From a virus: 64,000 bases of DNA. Numbering within the stretch: position 1 is the stretch's first letter; each line of letters begins with the position of its first letter. The stretch is from the UHGV virus genome UHGV-0277313; one strand, written 5' to 3'. This document shows positions 5,189 through 64,000 of this stretch, one piece after another. The notes beneath the pieces are model-generated. The model did no database searches and was not told the origin of the DNA. It worked only from the letters and a program-made list of their open reading frames with translations. Position numbers and translations under genes: made by a program.

Positions 5189-7068
<1,880 letters not shown>

Positions 7069-52789: not shown

Positions 52790-54784
52790 ATGAAGCAAGT
52801 AATAAAACGCGATGGAAAAGAAGTTAAATTTAATTTGAAAAAGATTGTATCGGCTATTCGTAGGGCTGGAGAGTCTTCTGGTGAATTTGGTTATGACGAA
52901 GCTTTAGATTTAACAAATTCAGTAATTCAAATGTTTGATAATAAAGAAAAAGCAACTGTTGAAGAGATTCAAGATGCTGTTGAAAAAGTGTTGAATGAAA
53001 ATAATTACACAAAGACAGCACGCGCTTTTATTGTGTATCGTGAAAAACATAATGATATGAGAAAAGATAATAATGTAATGATTGATGCTGTTCAGTCAAT
53101 TGATGATTATCTTGATCGTTCAGATTGGCGTGTAAACGCTAACGCAAATCAGGGGTATTCTTTAGGTGGTATGATTCTAAATACTTCTGGTAAAGTAACA
53201 GCAAATTATTGGTTGAGCCATGTGTACCCTAAAGAAGCTGGTGAAGCACATCGTAATGGTGATATACAGATTCACGATTTAGATATGTTAGCAAATTATT
53301 GTACTGGATGGTCATTGCGTGCATTGCTTCAGGAAGGCTTTAACGGTGTTAAAGGTAAAGTTGAAAGTAAACCACCAAAACATTTAGCTTCAGCTTTAGG
53401 ACAAATGGTGAATTTTTGGGGTTGTTTACAGAATGAGAATGCAGGTGCACAGGCATTTAGTAGTTTCGACACATATCTTGCACCTTATGTTCGTAATGAT
53501 AAATTGACATACAAACAGGTTTATGATGCTATTCAGGAATTTGTATTTAATGTGAATGTTCCTTCAAGATGGGGAACACAGACGCCTTTTACGAACATTA
53601 CATTAGATTGGACATGTCCGGAAGATTTGAAGGATTCACAACCTATAATTGCTGGTGAAGAGATGGATTATACATATTCTGAACTTCAACCAGAAATGGA
53701 CATGATTAATAAAGCCTTTATTGAAGTCATGATTAAAGGTGATGCACATGGACGTTTATTTACATTTCCTATTCCGACATATAATATTACACCAGACTTC
53801 CCGTGGGAAAGCGAAAATACAAAGTTGTTGTTCGAAATGACGGCAAAGTATGGGTTGCCGTATTTTCAGAATTTCTTGAATTCAGATTTGAAAGTTGGTG
53901 ATGTTAGAAGTATGTGCTGTCGTCTTCAACTTGACTTGCGTGAAATTAAAAAACGCGGTGGCGGTCTATTTGGTTCAGGGGAACAGACAGGTTCAATTGG
54001 TGTTATAACAATTAACTGTGCGCGTTTAGGGTATCTGTTTAAGAATGATATAACAGGTTTATATAAACGTTTAGATGAATTGATGAATATTGCTAGAAAT
54101 GCATTAGAACAAAAAAGAAAGTCATTAAATAAATGGATGGAGCAAGGTTTGTATCCTTATTCTAAACGTTATTTAGGTGGTTACAACACTTTGTTTTCAA
54201 CGATAGGAATTAATGGTGTAAACGAAATGATTCGTAACTTTACAAACGATGAACATGATATCACAGATGACTATGGACAGAAGTTTGCAATGTCTTTAAT
54301 GGATCATATTAATGAGGTGTTAAAACAATTTCAGGTTGAAACTGGTAATTTATACAACTTGGAGGCTACGCCAGGAGAAGGAACTACTTTTAGGTTTGCG
54401 AAAGAAGATAAAAAACGCTATCCTGAAATTATTCAAGCAGGAAAACCTGAAGCACCTTATTATACAAACTCAACACAGATACCTGTTGGGTATACAAATG
54501 ATCCATTTACTGCATTAAATCTGCAGGAAGGTTTGCAGAGACGCTATAGTGGCGGCACAGTTGTACACCTTTACATGGGAGAAGCAATGTCATCATCAGA
54601 TTCTTGCAAGACTTTAGTGAAGCGTGTTCTGGAGAATTATCACATTCCATATTTAACAATTACACCTACGTTCTCGATTTGTCCTAAGCATGGGTATATC
54701 TCAGGTGAACATAAATATTGTCCTATTTGTGATGAAGAGTTAACTTCACCAAAGCAAGAGCAATGTAAAGCTTGTAAGGGTTAA
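52790..54784 (+). CDS. nrdD: anaerobic ribonucleoside-triphosphate reductase NrdD, catalytic core lacking the glycyl-radical loop
   Basis: N-terminal ATP-cone (VIKRDGKEVKFNLKKIVSAIRRA); NrdD blocks GGG(L)FGSGEQTGSIGVITINCARLGY and CCRLQLD; C-terminal zinc ribbon CPKHG...CPICDEE...CKAC; ORF stops at ...QCKACKG*, where NrdDs normally continue R-x-C-G-Y-L-G. Confidence 0.85.
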   Translation: MKQVIKRDGKEVKFNLKKIVSAIRRAGESSGEFGYDEALDLTNSVIQMFDNKEKATVEEIQDAVEKVLNENNYTKTARAFIVYREKHNDMRKDNNVMIDAVQSIDDYLDRSDWRVNANANQGYSLGGMILNTSGKVTANYWLSHVYPKEAGEAHRNGDIQIHDLDMLANYCTGWSLRALLQEGFNGVKGKVESKPPKHLASALGQMVNFWGCLQNENAGAQAFSSFDTYLAPYVRNDKLTYKQVYDAIQEFVFNVNVPSRWGTQTPFTNITLDWTCPEDLKDSQPIIAGEEMDYTYSELQPEMDMINKAFIEVMIKGDAHGRLFTFPIPTYNITPDFPWESENTKLLFEMTAKYGLPYFQNFLNSDLKVGDVRSMCCRLQLDLREIKKRGGGLFGSGEQTGSIGVITINCARLGYLFKNDITGLYKRLDELMNIARNALEQKRKSLNKWMEQGLYPYSKRYLGGYNTLFSTIGINGVNEMIRNFTNDEHDITDDYGQKFAMSLMDHINEVLKQFQVETGNLYNLEATPGEGTTFRFAKEDKKRYPEIIQAGKPEAPYYTNSTQIPVGYTNDPFTALNLQEGLQRRYSGGTVVHLYMGEAMSSSDSCKTLVKRVLENYHIPYLTITPTFSICPKHGYISGEHKYCPICDEELTSPKQEQCKACKG

Positions 54785-59597: not shown

Positions 59598-59926
59598 TGT
59601 TTAATTTTAATCGTTAAAGAATATTTACCATTATCTTTTTTGATATTTGTTAAAGTGGCTGTCAGATATTCTTTTGACGTGTGTGAATTATTGAAGCATT
59701 GCAATTCAATCGTTTTAAAGTCAATAAATTTGCTTGCTATTTGCTGTATTTTACTTGAATGTGCTCTTGTGATAGTAATTTCCTCAAGTTGCTGTAGCCC
59801 TTTAAAAAGGGGTTTAGGAAGTACTATTTTAAAAGATGCAATTTCGTTTTTAATCACTGCATGGGCTTTCTTCTTTAAGAATTTAGAAATTAAATTTTTC
59901 AAGAATTCAACAATTTTCTTAAACAT
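59594..59926 (-). CDS. hypothetical protein
   Basis: ATG at 59926 with GAGG RBS (tracked 59938 is TTG); 110 aa. Confidence 0.4.
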   Translation of the reverse strand: MFKKIVEFLKNLISKFLKKKAHAVIKNEIASFKIVLPKPLFKGLQQLEEITITRAHSSKIQQIASKFIDFKTIELQCFNNSHTSKEYLTATLTNIKKDNGKYSLTIKIKQ

Positions 59927-59963
59927 GGCAAACCTCAAATTTATTATTTGATATAAAAAATAG

Positions 59964-60020
59964 AACCCGTGTCAATAACAAATCACTATAATTAATTCGT
60001 TATCAACACGGGTTTCTTTT
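59964..60020 (-). terminator. terminator downstream of the minus-strand glycyl-radical gene
   Basis: imperfect 17-bp hairpin gaacccgtgtcaataac/gttatcaacacgggttt (59964-59980/59999-60015) with U-runs on both strands. Confidence 0.5.
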
Positions 60021-60025
60021 GTTTT

Positions 60026-61097
60026 TTATTCAGCAGCAATTGCTGAAACTTCCGTATGTTTGAAAGCAATATTTTCTTTGAAGTATTTGCGTTCTTCAAA
60101 TTCTGATTTCTTTCCAACATTGAAGTTTTCGTATGGACGGAAATACTTAATCGACTATTACTTCAGATTTATCTGTTGTTTCGTTTAGTCTGTCAAGGTA
60201 GCTTCTAGCAATACCATAATTTCTTTGTAATAGGTATCGAGGTTTGCCGTCGTACATAAAGTTAATAAGTTTCAGGCATTCAGATTGATTAAAACGTAAT
60301 CTAAACAGTTTACCGTTTGTAACAATCTTTTTTGTTTCATTTATTACTTTATGTCTTACTAAAATACTTTTTACATTTTTTAGTACAGGCATGTAACCAA
60401 TAATTTCTGCAAACAGATGGTTGTTATGTAAACCGTCATAATAAAAAGAACCGTCGGCATCAAAAAGACCTCTGATAAAATCTTTTGAGATTTCATCTTG
60501 TAACAGGTCTATATGAATATCTCCACGGTCTTTTTTAAGTTTTGTTAATTCATAGCGTTTTAAAGCTTTATGCAACTTCCAGCTTCGAATTTCAAAACCA
60601 CATGATGGGTATTTATTTTTAGCAAGGAAACGTTTAATCGGTTTATCACTACCAATAAAATTTCTAAAATTGGTTAATAAATTTATATCCTTTTCAGCAC
60701 AACATATTCTGATTTTATTTTCTGTTGTACAGTTTCCTTCACCGTATAAATAACCAATCCAATATGCAGATTCATGATTTATACAATCAAACACTTGTTC
60801 ATTAAGTGTATATTTTCGTTTGTTCATTTTTACATCCTTTCGGATAAGTCTTCCGACTTGAGCTTTCCTCATCGTTACTTTAATGTTTAATTAAAGCTTT
60901 CGATTATTATTAGAAACAATTTTATTTGGGCTATTTCACTTATGCGCACCCATGACGCGGGTCCATACTTCTGTTAACTGATGTTTATTGCCATCTTTCA
61001 TAGTGACAATTTGTTCAGTTTCATCGTAGTCTTCAATTTCATTGAAATCTTTGACTCCCTTTAGGCGCAACAACGCCATCTTTTTTTCATTTAACAT
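60026..61097 (-). CDS. small glycyl-radical subunit completing NrdD (GrcA-like), split by a group I intron
   Basis: exon 1 (61097-60948, RBS GGAG) encodes MLNEKKMALLRLKGVKDFNEIEDYDETEQIVTMKDGNKHQLTEVWTRVMG; exon 2 (60145-60029, stop 60028-60026) encodes YFRPYENFNVGKKSEFEERKYFKENIAFKHTEVSAIAAE; the junction recreates RVMG-YF, the glycyl-radical signature, and the tail parallels E. coli NrdD ...RTCGYLGNPNERGFNLGKNKE...; unspliced exon 1 would read ...RVMGAHK*. Confidence 0.6.
60146..60947 (-). mobile_element. putative group I intron (802 nt) carrying a LAGLIDADG homing-endonuclease ORF
   Basis: 5' exon ends ...AUGGGU; intron begins GCGCAUAAGUGAAAUAGCCCA; GCCCA (60931-60927) pairs with exon UGGGU (P1, U.G at the splice site); adjacent AAUA (60935-60932) pairs with the first 3'-exon bases UAUU (P10); last intron nucleotide is G (60146); core P3-P9 not verified. 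Confidence 0.5.
60147..60872 (-). CDS. LAGLIDADG-family homing endonuclease (intron-encoded)
   Basis: two LAGLIDADG motifs (YWIGYLYGEGNC and IRGLFDADGSF); alternative start MNKRKY at 60827 with AAGGA RBS; its stop abuts the intron 3' end. Confidence 0.75.
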   Translation of the reverse strand: MRKAQVGRLIRKDVKMNKRKYTLNEQVFDCINHESAYWIGYLYGEGNCTTENKIRICCAEKDINLLTNFRNFIGSDKPIKRFLAKNKYPSCGFEIRSWKLHKALKRYELTKLKKDRGDIHIDLLQDEISKDFIRGLFDADGSFYYDGLHNNHLFAEIIGYMPVLKNVKSILVRHKVINETKKIVTNGKLFRLRFNQSECLKLINFMYDGKPRYLLQRNYGIARSYLDRLNETTDKSEVIVD

Positions 61098-61449
61098 TTT
61101 AATTCTCCATTAAGTTAAGTGGAAATAAAAATCCGAAATGGAGTTCCAGATTCTTATTTGTGTGTTTTCCTATTTACTGTGTGTAAAAGCACATTCTTTA
61201 AGAAACATACTGTTTCCTAAAGGTAGATTGAAGAACTAAAGCTTTTATCTATCATACTGATAATAGCTTTAAAAATTCTTCTTTATTTTCAATAAGTTAA
61301 GGTTGTTGACAAACATTTTTATTTAGTTTAAAACGTTGAAAAACAACAAACATTTCAAGAACAAAAAGTTAATTTTAGAAGAAATGTTCCTAACCTATTG
61401 AAATCGTTAAGTTGCAAAAGATGTTTTTGTCTAATGCAATTTAATTGTG

Positions 61450-61905: not shown

Positions 61906-64000
61906 CTATTCTTCACGTTTACCATAAAAACCGTTGCCGACAAAATACTTGCTTTTGAAATCCATATTTGGGCAAGGATCTTCAAATTCAAGCTTCAGTG
62001 AAATAAGTTGTGTCGGGACTTCAATAGGTAACTCTTCACGTTCTTCTGGAGGGATAGGGTCACCTTCTTTCATCTCAAGTATTTTGTAGTCGTATGCTTC
62101 ATCAAGTTCACGTTTTAAATAATCCCAATTGCAGTTGCCTCCCTTGATATTTAAAATGAATTTACCATCCTTCTCTTCAAAAGATTTAATATCCATTTCA
62201 CGTCCCCATGATTGACCTAAACCAAAATCAATGAACATTTTGTTTCCGTTCATCCAATCATAAATAACATTTGGTACCGTACCTGCATGAAATTGACAAA
62301 TCTTAAAAACTGGAATTAATTCACCTGGGTATATGTCAAGATATGTTGAATCATGAACACCACCAATCATTACTGATTGTAAATCGTGCATCAACATCTC
62401 TTCTGCAATATGTGTACCTGCAATCCATGCCATACGGCTAGCGGATGAATTGTGTACAAAAACACCAGCTTCTAATGCGAAATTGTGTGTATTTTCATTG
62501 TTTTCAACTTCAATATCATATACTGAAATTTTGTTTGGTAGTTTAATTACTTCAACAGATGTAACTTTATGGTTGTTGAATAATTCTGCTACTAAACGTT
62601 CATAATTTTCTTTTGAAAAGTGCGGAACACTTGAAGCTCTAGCTCCTTCATTAATATAAGACAATCTGTATTCTTCAAAAATATTTTCGAAAGAAGAATC
62701 TAGTAATATATTTTTACCAAGTTTTTCAATAATTTTTAAAGAAAGTTTTTTGAACTTATAAAAAGTTGTATTCTTTCCACATTTTCTGATATTATTTTTC
62801 ATATGCTGTATCTTTTCTAGATCATTACCTTTCCAAATTTTATTTATTGTTTTTCTGGCAGATTCAGACAATTGTTCTTTAGACATACAGAATGCATTTC
62901 CATATGTTTCAATGCGTTTTTTTACCAAAGCTTTAACTGCTTCTCTTTGGTTAAAATCCCAATCTTTATAAAGTTCTTTTCTTTTTTTATTTTTTTCAGC
63001 CATTAATTTAGATTGTTTTTCAGAATGTTCTTGTGTTAAAAAATGTTTCCAAATATTGTTTTCACGTTTGCCTTCTCGTATTTCACGTACACGTTTTTGA
63101 GTGTCAATACTACGTTGTTTTGAAGTATATTTCAAACCCATTTGACGTAAATATTCGTGAACAGATACACCTGTCAGGTCAGCATGTCTTTTAATAGTAG
63201 ACATTACAAGAGATGAATGATATTTTATATGTTCTGCCTTATCCATAATAAGTAAATTATCAGGGTTGTTGTTTAATTTGTTGAAATCTTTGTGATGTAC
63301 TGCTTCATTTTTTTCAATAGTACGATCATAATATTTACTTACTATACGATGTACAGAGGCCCAAGGTTTTGTAGTTAAATCATTTCTTTTAACATATTTA
63401 TACCCTAACTTGTCATATTTTGTATAACAAGGCATTAAGCTTTCATTATTTTTTAAATCGATAGCATGTTTATATGTTCCATCCCTTAACATAAACTGGT
63501 GTTCAGGTGTGCATGTAATAATTTCGCCAGAATCTAATGTAACTTTACAAATTGTGTCAGTTTCTCCAGATTTAAAAGCGTTAATAATTTTGCCAGGTAT
63601 AATTTTACCATCATTACAACAAGATAAAACATACTTATTTTCAAAATTATTCACAAGGTTTTGAATTTCAACAACACTGCCATCTAATAAAGGTATTTTA
63701 GTATCACCAACAAAACATTGGATCCCACTATTCTGGCTTGCATTCATAGCATGATTCAACAACTTCCTGTTGCTTTTAGTGTCAGGCAACATTGCATCTG
63801 GTAACGGTCTAGTACAACCAAATACGTCAACAATATATCCATGCTCACGGGCGAACTTGTGTTGATATTCAACGTATGTTTTAATACCAGGGTATGCCCC
63901 CATCATTTTATCAATAGTTTCTTGAGCTTCTTCGACAGTGCATCCCCACTCTTTTGAAAAGTTGTAGGCTGATTTTCCATAGAGTAGACCAAACATTGTT
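61906..64000 (-). CDS. family A DNA polymerase, C-terminal piece (O-helix/motif B and motif C), intein-containing; 5' end beyond the window
   Basis: MFGLLYGKSAYNFSKEWG = Pol I motif B (NFGxxYG); then ...NASQNSGIQ [intein] SSASRMAWIAGTHIAEEM...GGVHDSTY (motif C, VHDE-like); the reading frame stays open to the window edge. Confidence 0.7.
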   Translation of the reverse strand, partial: TMFGLLYGKSAYNFSKEWGCTVEEAQETIDKMMGAYPGIKTYVEYQHKFAREHGYIVDVFGCTRPLPDAMLPDTKSNRKLLNHAMNASQNSGIQCFVGDTKIPLLDGSVVEIQNLVNNFENKYVLSCCNDGKIIPGKIINAFKSGETDTICKVTLDSGEIITCTPEHQFMLRDGTYKHAIDLKNNESLMPCYTKYDKLGYKYVKRNDLTTKPWASVHRIVSKYYDRTIEKNEAVHHKDFNKLNNNPDNLLIMDKAEHIKYHSSLVMSTIKRHADLTGVSVHEYLRQMGLKYTSKQRSIDTQKRVREIREGKRENNIWKHFLTQEHSEKQSKLMAEKNKKRKELYKDWDFNQREAVKALVKKRIETYGNAFCMSKEQLSESARKTINKIWKGNDLEKIQHMKNNIRKCGKNTTFYKFKKLSLKIIEKLGKNILLDSSFENIFEEYRLSYINEGARASSVPHFSKENYERLVAELFNNHKVTSVEVIKLPNKISVYDIEVENNENTHNFALEAGVFVHNSSASRMAWIAGTHIAEEMLMHDLQSVMIGGVHDSTYLDIYPGELIPVFKICQFHAGTVPNVIYDWMNGNKMFIDFGLGQSWGREMDIKSFEEKDGKFILNIKGGNCNWDYLKRELDEAYDYKILEMKEGDPIPPEEREELPIEVPTQLISLKLEFEDPCPNMDFKSKYFVGNGFYGKREE
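62449..63717 (-). mobile_element. intein (423 aa) with HNH homing-endonuclease domain inside the DNA polymerase
   Basis: starts CFVGDTKIPLLDG (block A, Cys1), TCTPEHQFML (block B TxxH), HNH domain AVHHKDFNKLNNNPDNLLIMDKAEHIKYH, ends ...VYDIEVENNENTHNFALEAGVFVHN followed by +1 Ser; precisely in-frame between conserved pol motifs. Confidence 0.7.

Follow-up and report, generated by a model that had tools for sequence, protein, structure and literature searches.

The 64,000-nucleotide stretch of the UHGV virus genome UHGV-0277313 that was analyzed here (the window) very probably contains, at positions 60947 to 60146 of the minus strand, a mobile group I intron that interrupts a phage gene for a small glycyl-radical protein of the NrdD type, NrdD being the anaerobic (class III) ribonucleotide reductase. 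The insertion is exact, the RNA structure is conserved and covaries among relatives, the encoded protein has the fold of LAGLIDADG homing endonucleases, and the element is present in some loci and missing from others. From these observations we infer that the RNA splices catalytically, that the element homes, and that translation of its endonuclease is coupled to folding of the ribozyme. The interrupted gene consists of the following parts:

61097..60948, minus strand: exon 1 of the small NrdD-type glycyl-radical gene, 50 codons (MLNEK...TEVWTRVMG), taken from the list of open reading frames (ORFs) and aligning to residues 1-50 of the homologue P0001
60947..60146, minus strand: predicted group I intron with a LAGLIDADG homing-endonuclease gene, 802 nt, missing in the intron-less loci L001-L004 and containing covarying helices
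60145..60026, minus strand: exon 2 with its stop codon, DNA YFRPYENFNVGKK..., protein YFRPYENFNVGKKSEFEERKYF...AAE-stop

The reading frames alone place the two exons in a single gene only if the insert is removed. Unspliced, exon 1 reads through RVMG into AHK and a stop; the insert length is 1 modulo 3, so that exon 2 lies in a different frame, and exon 2 has neither a start codon of its own nor an open frame ahead of it, with an in-frame TAG four codons upstream. These coordinates and frames agree with the original prediction, which had been made from the letters of the window and had called a group I intron at a glycine codon boundary. Joined, the exons form an open frame of 89 aa (...TRVMG-YFRP...) that matches the Pfam family NRDD with 31.1 bits (cut-off 26.2) over positions 528-562 of 562 only, that is, over the last 35. 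A protein search returned a homologue (P0001) that is likewise 89 aa long, is 82% identical over its full length, and is encoded without interruption on four contigs (L001-L004). The contiguity of P0001 fixes the junction independently of any intron feature, between Gly50 and Tyr51, with GGT|TAT in the window and GGC|TAT in the intron-less homologues; the intron-less DNA reads ...GTGATGGGC|TATTTCAGACCG... where the window reads ...GTCATGGGT[802 nt]TATTTCCGTCCA.... The comparison with intron-less homologues that had been proposed thus defines the junction of the presumed homing site, supports removal of 60146-60947 at the Gly codon boundary, and joins the two segments in one gene, against the possibility that they belong to unrelated genes. 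Further protein matches are stubs of 50-55 aa in which RVMG is followed by junk, which is the same interruption as gene callers render it. Searches of the small protein against PDB sequences (phmmer and profile searches) gave no match.

Residues T46-R47-V48-M49-G50-Y51 are invariant in the small-protein family (TRVMGY, 19 members), which upholds the expectation that the insertion falls among the most conserved codons, and a TRVMGY-type motif also ends the full-length nrdD of locus L024, after its Zn-ribbon cysteines. Based on general knowledge of glycyl-radical enzymes, we take Gly50 to be the radical site. Homing endonucleases favor conserved codons (PMC3984707), and the invariance of T46-Y51 fits this preference. 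It is very improbable that the RNA is not spliced at all and that insertion of a free-standing endonuclease gene has left a host gene in pieces that are translated independently, as happened with mobE in nrdA of phage Aeh1. Splits caused by endonucleases are known in phage ribonucleotide reductase genes (PMC3653736), and the large and small NrdD pieces described below represent just such a split at the protein level; however, exon 2 lacks a start codon and is closely preceded by an in-frame stop, the break falls between Gly50 and Tyr51 inside the radical loop, and the ORF is flanked by a covarying group I core with a guide that pairs with both exons.

The elements of the intron RNA, given as paired (P) and joining (J) regions with primes for 3' strands, are located as follows:

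60953..60927, minus strand: P1, exon AUGGGU (60953-60948) with guide GCCCA (60931-60927), U.G at the splice site
60145..60140, minus strand: 3' strand of P10, the first six exon-2 bases UAUUUC, pairing with GAAAUA at 60937-60932
60919..60913, minus strand: 5' strand of P3, UUGUUUC, partner GAAACAA at 60182-60176
60904..60871, minus strand: P4 with the enclosed J4/5, P5 and J5/4; P4 is AUCG 60904-60901 with CGAU 60874-60871, P5 is 60897-60877
60870..60867, minus strand: 5' strand of P6, GAGG, partner CCUU at 60198-60195
60858..60847, minus strand: P6a hairpin, AGUC-GGAA-GACU
60845..60834, minus strand: P6b hairpin, AUCC-GAAA-GGAU, which includes the Shine-Dalgarno-like AAAGGA of the endonuclease gene
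60198..60152, minus strand: 3' half of the core, with P6' CCUU (60198-60195), J6/7 GA, P7, J7/3 AAC, P3', P8, J8/7 and P7'
60192..60186, minus strand: 5' strand of P7, CAGACUA with a bulged A; P7' is UAGUCG at 60157-60152
60182..60176, minus strand: P3', GAAACAA
60175..60164, minus strand: P8 hairpin, CAGA-UAAA-UCUG, followed by J8/7 AAGUAA
60146, minus strand: terminal G (omega-G), with only five bases, AUUAA, between P7' and this G

The core is therefore split, as P3, P4, P5, P6 and P6a/b lie in the first 114 nt and P6', P7, P3', P8 and P7' in the last 53 nt. Both the P4-P5-P6 stack and the P3-P8-P7 domain are located, and the crossing of P3 and P7 forms a pseudoknot. The P7 helix is of the G-binding type, with a bulged A beside a conserved G-C pair (C-A(bulge)-GACUA / UAGUCG), and would serve as the guanosine-binding site. 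The joiners, CUUGACAGACUAAAC and GAAGUAAUAGUCG, are similar to the R and S elements and to the consensus of the Rfam group I intron model RF00028. The loop of P1 contains an in-frame stop, UGA (60938-60936), together with the 5' strand of P10, GAAAUA (60937-60932). The P1 pairing of exon UGGGU with intron GCCCA (60931-60927), with U.G at the splice site, is as the original prediction had drawn it and covaries across 22 relatives. P10 likewise pairs with the 3' exon as proposed, with a length of 6 bp (GAAAUA/UAUUUC) instead of 4. The prediction had also cautioned that a P7/P9 core would have to overlap coding sequence and that no core could be folded; the overlap holds for P7 and the core is now found, whereas P9 does not occur in this copy. 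P2 and P7.1/7.2 are absent from it as well, and P9 hairpins are present in relatives, at L037 (AAUC-GAAA-GAUU) and L032. The pattern of the 3' core has a single occurrence in the window; it is found in all loci that include this part of the intron apart from L031 (J8/7 AUGCAA), and is absent from the intron-less loci.

Covariation among relatives supports each of these helices. Relatives were gathered through the endonuclease protein from viral, genome and metagenome collections and by exact-protein look-ups, and 22 introns, with their ORFs deleted, were placed in an alignment (A3) in which columns are set by fixed offsets from conserved unpaired motifs. Of the 886 pair cells, 95.8% contain standard pairs, a proportion that falls to 33-43% if the 3' partners are shifted by 1-3 columns, and 34 of the 46 pairs have changed on both sides. 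The covariation score is 0.411 (about 0.05 with shifted partners), and not one of 500 shuffles reaches the observed values. Compensatory pairs make up 7 of 7 in P3, 4 of 4 in P4, 5 of 5 in P5, 3 of 4 in P6, 4 of 4 in P8 and 6 of 6 in P10; in P7 they make up 2 of 6, and the remaining four are invariant. The proportion of paired cells is 96% in P1, 98.5% in P3, 100% in P4 and in P6, and 86% in P10. The outer pair of P7 is C-G, G-C, A-U or U-A depending on the relative and an inner pair is G-C or A-U, while the G-C pair that follows the bulge (alignment pair 141-184) is the same in 19 of 19. The P6a hairpin occurs as AGUC/GACU, AGCC/GGCU and AGGC/GCCU, and P10 tracks exon 2 from one relative to the next, being GUGAUA/UAUCAC in L018, GAUGUA/UACAUC in L051 and GUAGUA/UACUGC in L047.

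The splice sites are constrained by the same alignment. Of the 22 introns, 20 are preceded by U at the 5' splice site and the other two (L037 and L048) by C; the guide of these two has A, so that an isosteric C.A pair replaces U.G. Placing the splice site one base further left (GG|U...A|G) was considered and is ruled out by this covariation with the guide. That the intron ends in G, as had been claimed, holds for position 60146 and for all 18 relatives in which the 3' end is available. A stop in the frame of exon 1 occurs within the first 12 intron bases, upstream of the guide and after 0-4 codons, in 21 of 22; the exception is L024, in which the stop follows six codons. Intron lengths among the relatives range from 773 to 821 nt and represent all three residues modulo 3. 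These early stops and lengths exclude an intein. The reading frames likewise exclude a group II intron and a translational bypass element, and we assign this whole set of readings a negligible probability. An intein does occur nearby, in the DNA polymerase A gene at 61906-63996; however, the stops after at most six codons and an insert length that is not a multiple of three are inconsistent with the set, no group II domains and no reverse transcriptase were found, and 802 nt is far above known bypass gaps.

The reading frame inside the intron supports its classification as a mobile element:

60827..60147, minus strand: homing-endonuclease ORF, 226 aa and a stop, in loop L6 and continuing through P6', P7, P3', P8 and P7'

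A single base separates this ORF from exon 2, and the nucleotides of its last 18 codons (SYLDRLNETTDKSEVIVD) also form P6', P7, P3', P8 and P7'. It most likely starts at ATG 60827, with AAAGGA upstream within hairpin P6b, and not at the upstream ATG 60872, a candidate that was rejected because its frame is closed by a stop in L005. The protein contains two motifs, YWIGYLYGEGN (residues ~22-32) and FIRGLFDADGSF (~117-127). It has 76 homologues with 32-99% identity, all but two of them at least 44% identical, and many carry a precomputed match to PF14528; the window protein itself scores 21.6 bits against PF14528 (LAGLIDADG_3), for which the cut-off is 22.5, and matches the PHROG family 4645 'endonuclease' at 3.4e-29. 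Searches against PDB sequences with phmmer and a profile returned only a marginal intein endonuclease domain (E 0.012, both motifs aligned) and were uninformative, so that a fold search was needed. An AlphaFold model based on 24 homologues (predicted local distance difference test 90.4, predicted template modeling score 0.87) has as its top PDB matches in Foldseek I-AniI (1.8e-8), then the bI3 maturase, I-Tsp061I and I-SceI, and the best 50 matches all have the LAGLIDADG fold, including homing endonucleases, maturases, derived meganucleases, intein domains and WhiA. The modeled fold and the two motifs thus confirm the LAGLIDADG assignment of the original prediction, and the product is best described as a predicted double-motif, monomeric LAGLIDADG enzyme. 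Within the segment SYLDRLNE, an alignment of 16 homing-endonuclease sequences has no variation at R and L and hardly any at Y, L and N. The ORF continues past the intron end into exon 2 in many homologues (...EATV..|YxRP..NxGK). Conservation of third codon positions is 0.80 in the overlap against 0.68-0.70, a modest excess on which we do not rely.

The distribution of the intron points in the same direction. It is present in the window, L005 and L010 and missing from L001-L004. Between the window and L010, identity is 99.3-99.7% in exon 1 and over 400 nt upstream of it, 90% in the intron and 80% downstream; between the window and L005 it is 85% in the intron, compared with 63-83% in exons and flanks. 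This presence/absence polymorphism, together with an intron that is more conserved than its flanks in the comparison with L005, would be an indirect signature of mobility, read from sequence comparison. In L020, L022 and L051, where the small gene comes immediately after a truncated nrdD, the pair of intron and endonuclease occupies the same site. In the full-length nrdD of L024 (~1460-2245) and of L050, a more distant relative of the intron, with an endonuclease that is 45-48% identical, lies one base further 3' relative to the Gly codon; the contexts are GGG U|UU and GGG U|AU, and ...GGGU| still pairs with the guide. A scan of genome contigs found two contigs of metagenome-assembled genomes that carry the same phage-like locus. 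The closest intron-bearing viral contig is IMGVR_UViG_3300013426_000013 (313.8 kb), which, along with the base composition, chaperonin gene and very long ORFs of the window described below, points to a jumbo phage of the gut.

A second intron occurs next to homologues of the window intron in some relatives. At L010:3142-4730, and also in L017 and L025, two group I introns lie nine bases apart in one small gene. The first, which is IA2-like and follows codon R47, measures 776 nt with an HNH/NUMOD4 ORF in L010 and 243 nt without an ORF in L017; a micro-exon of 9 nt, GTTATGGGT (VMG), separates it from the homologue of the window intron. The window has no R47 intron, though its upstream DNA is 99.7% identical to that of L010. 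Additionally, L028 (~1395-1420) has an 8-nt insertion, TGAATAGT, in exon 1 between the R and V codons, which is the site of the HNH intron of L010. This insertion would shift the frame, and may be a footprint of intron loss, a tiny unrecognized element or an assembly error.

We propose that the intron acts as follows. P1 would form between the last six bases of exon 1 and the internal guide and place U.G at the splice site; around the G-binding P7, the P3-P8 core would assemble, and an external guanosine would attack after the U. The 6-bp P10 would then align exon 2, the terminal G would dock, and the exons would be ligated to GGU|UAU, reading ...CGCGTCATGGGT joined to TATTTCCGTCC. Ribosomes on exon 1 would be halted by the UGA 12 nt into the intron, ahead of the guide, and such an early in-frame stop fits the usual phage layout in which ribosomes are halted ahead of the ribozyme. 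The 226-aa endonuclease would be translated from its own start, with its ribosome-binding site in P6b. Translation of the endonuclease would unfold the ribozyme, and the folded ribozyme would hide the ribosome-binding site; since this site lies in P6b and the last 18 codons form the 3' core, translation and folding are probably mutually exclusive on any one RNA. In co-infecting phages with an intron-less allele, the endonuclease presumably cleaves the Gly|Tyr junction, after which repair would copy the intron in.

Several points weigh against this interpretation and must be set beside the evidence above. First, the window copy has no P2 and no P9, and P4 and P6 have just 4 bp each, so that the ribozyme would be very lean and its autonomous folding is not guaranteed. 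Second, the ORF covers the entire 3' half of the core, and translation should oppose folding. Third, A3 was anchored by hand with hairpin arms justified to the helix ends, which biases it toward the structure for P5, P6a and P8, and the 22 aligned relatives share ancestry and are not independent events. Fourth, L021 (~2127-2165) and L048 (~1866-1905) lack P8 through a 12-nt deletion of four codons while keeping all other helices and the ORF, and some members of the family may thus be inactive. Fifth, the exact spliced protein of 89 aa is absent from the protein collection searched. Sixth, RF00028 gives no match in the whole window at the gathering threshold or in 59900-61200 at E<=10.

Two of these points can be assessed with additional data. 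Because A3 leans toward the structure, RNAalifold was run on a plain MAFFT alignment that had not been fitted to it, and recovered P3, P4, P5, P6, P6a and P8, with 21 of 26 pairs compensatory; P7 is missing from this output because it crosses P3. In the case of Rfam, the search with RF00028 had been proposed as a check in the original prediction and came out negative when run. The scan of 59900-61200 at E<=10 returned microRNA-like matches to the terminator hairpin and nothing else, and this hairpin is the source of those spurious microRNA-family matches:

60012..59966, minus strand: intrinsic-terminator-like hairpin, 20 pairs and a T run, directly after the stop codon of exon 2

With RF00028 on L010, L017, L024 and L037 (E<=1), the homologues of the window intron go undetected, and the model also misses the compact 243-nt ORF-less IA2-like intron of L017. 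We therefore regard the Rfam negative as weak and treat it as a limit of the model; in the window intron the core is split by a 680-nt ORF. The sole detection by RF00028 is another ORF-less group I intron at L037:120-340, ~1 kb upstream of the small gene, which scores 38.3 bits (E 8.7e-7), below the gathering score of 50, and which lies probably within the gene for the nrdD large piece (gene end ~1290-1390).

Searches of deposited phages with the region (blastn) and with the spliced protein (tblastn) gave no match, a tblastn search with the endonuclease gave nothing above ~30% identity, and no natural ORF-less copy of the window intron was found among the viral contigs. By these sequence searches, neither the intron nor the endonuclease appears to have a close relative among deposited phages.

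The lean core also raises the possibility, which we consider real if well short of even, that the element is a group I intron that is not autonomous and needs a protein to fold, likeliest its own LAGLIDADG protein in the role of maturase, or else an RNA chaperone of the host. This would refine the interpretation favored here and is not exclusive of it. The peripheral helices that normally clamp the core are missing from the window copy, the closest structural matches of the endonuclease, I-AniI and the bI3 maturase, both bind intron RNA, and the Thermotoga 23S intron provides a documented case of a bacterial LAGLIDADG maturase (PMC3984707). However, likeness to I-AniI and bI3 reflects the common LAGLIDADG fold and is uninformative on RNA binding, and GNRA loops on P6a and P6b (on P8 and P9 in relatives) could provide tertiary contacts. 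That the intron has decayed and no longer splices, leaving the small gene as a pseudogene in the phage, is unlikely. Although the missing Rfam match, the missing P9, the absence of the exact spliced product from the protein collection and the occurrence of relatives without P8 could be read in this way, the 226-aa ORF is intact, all core helices are intact and match the family consensus, and the exons, likewise intact, share 82% identity with the uninterrupted homologue. Furthermore, the small gene has its own terminator, and the NrdD of the phage, which has no radical loop, would be useless without the small gene.

Phage introns of this kind have well-known precedents. The nrdD (sunY) intron of phage T4 encodes I-TevII; the T4 introns are self-splicing, with an early in-frame stop after the 5' splice site, and they belong to subgroup IA2, with P7.1/P7.2 and P9 extensions and with GIY-YIG or HNH enzymes. 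Group I introns of T4 reside in td, nrdB and nrdD (PMC1865063, PMC2988022), and phage ribonucleotide reductase genes have been surveyed for introns and endonucleases (PMC3653736). The window resembles the T4 nrdD, td and nrdB cases in having a group I intron with an endonuclease gene in a phage gene of nucleotide metabolism and an early in-frame stop. It differs in that the intron has no P2, P7.1/7.2 or P9, encodes a LAGLIDADG enzyme, and is located at the radical-glycine codon of a separate small gene. Group I introns in which the endonuclease ORF overlaps the ribozyme core have been reviewed (Hausner, Hafez and Edgell 2014, PMC3984707, Fig. 2b); here too the ORF starts in a peripheral loop (L6) and enters the core, with bases that are doubly constrained, and the overlap comprises the entire 3' half of the core (P6', P7, P3', P8, P7').

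According to a recent report on the gut 'Jug' jumbo phages (Sci Adv 2026, PMC12880540), 95 of 104 genomes have an nrdD that group I introns and endonucleases have fragmented, and splicing of some introns was confirmed by metatranscriptome reads; the same report presents no splicing evidence for one break, that before a 91-aa last nrdD fragment. The Jug introns were found with subtype covariance models and have a mean length of ~206 nt. Both systems have an nrdD-type gene interrupted by a group I intron and an endonuclease, with 802 nt in the window against the mean that is given for the Jug introns. The endonuclease shares its fold with I-AniI, the bI3 maturase and I-SceI (Foldseek E 1.8e-8 to 6.5e-6, template modeling score 0.58-0.66 on the query), with just 10-18% sequence identity to them; its cleavage activity and its target are putative. 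Introns in phage ribonucleotide reductase genes, targeting of conserved codons, and ORFs that overlap the core are already known. What is unusual in the window intron is the lean core, an ORF over the whole 3' half of the core, the insertion at the radical glycine, and its invisibility to Rfam.

The intron belongs to a familiar class of mobile elements. The NrdD-type radical loop that stands alone is more surprising, and the two-piece reductase to which it points is the less ordinary part of this locus. The other genes in question are located elsewhere in the window:

52790..54784, plus strand: large piece of NrdD, 664 aa, with ATP-cone, barrel and Zn-ribbon cysteines and without a glycyl-radical loop
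54840..55535, plus strand: NrdG-like radical-SAM (S-adenosylmethionine) activase, following the large nrdD piece

The 664-aa protein matches Pfam NRDD over positions 2-529 of 562 (580 bits), in addition to an ATP-cone, aligns to residues 101-610 of 651 of the Thermotoga maritima NrdD, and terminates after the Zn ribbon (...CPICDEELTSPKQEQCKACKG-stop). The NrdG-like protein matches PHROG 626 'anaerobic ribonucleotide reductase small subunit' (8.6e-7) and a QueE-like radical-SAM family (5.9e-10). The radical loop is encoded 5 kb from the large nrdD piece and on the opposite strand, and the small gene supplies NRDD positions 528-562, those that are missing from the 664-aa protein; the radical loop is not in the same polypeptide as the catalytic barrel, since the 664-aa NrdD covers the profile up to position 529 only. 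This complementary coverage of NRDD suggests a class III reductase in two pieces, of which the radical-bearing piece would be produced only after splicing. Judged by its sequence, the spliced product may work like the C-terminus of NrdD while being a separate protein. It is quite conceivable, though somewhat short of probable, that the small gene encodes the radical-carrying subunit of a two-piece class III reductase, or else an exchangeable glycyl-radical cofactor for NrdD similar to GrcA.

YfiD/GrcA is an autonomous glycyl-radical cofactor of pyruvate formate-lyase. The spliced product resembles it in being a small stand-alone protein that consists essentially of a glycyl-radical loop, and differs from it in being of the NrdD type (RVMGYFRP...NxGKK) and not of the pyruvate formate-lyase type. 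Furthermore, unlike the situation with GrcA, the cognate large NrdD has no loop from the outset, which gives the small protein the appearance of an obligate subunit and not of a repair part. According to a 2026 review, formate lyases are the only enzymes for which spare-part proteins are known (PMC13450708). A profile search for stand-alone NrdD-type loops, with representatives clustered at 50% identity, returned 4427 representatives at E<=1e-3, of which the best 150 range in length from 51 to 152 aa. Members of this stand-alone family include proteins P0011-P0343 and loci L052-L056, and some are distant from any nrdD, one lying between lysozyme and integrase genes on a temperate-phage-like contig and another in a bacterial chromosomal neighborhood.

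If these interpretations are correct, the family of introns and endonucleases parasitizes the one codon that the small proteins and full-length NrdD have in common, and production of the radical subunit in the phage depends on RNA splicing. The two-piece layout would also make installation of the radical in trans testable. With respect to annotation, the intron family is invisible to the Rfam group I model and appears to have no close relative in deposited phages, and gene callers report a 53-aa stub, or the endonuclease fused to exon 2, in place of the real gene; recognizing the intron restores what would be an essential part of the anaerobic ribonucleotide reductase of the phage. With respect to RNA biology, the window copy represents a natural lean group I core (no P2, P7.1/7.2 or P9) in which the 3' half is fully protein-coding, and ~20 diverged relatives allow covariation to be followed helix by helix.

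The surroundings of the locus include other elements of interest. The DNA polymerase A gene at 61906-63996 (minus strand), which runs off the end of the window, contains an intein with an HNH domain (Intein_splicing 4.9e-18, HNH_3 3.1e-7), so that another mobile element lies less than 1 kb away from the intron. The G+C content of the window is 26-35% per 2-kb stretch, several ORFs of more than 1000 aa are without a Pfam match, and positions 5470-7068 (plus strand) encode a chaperonin of the Cpn60/GroEL type (9.9e-62).

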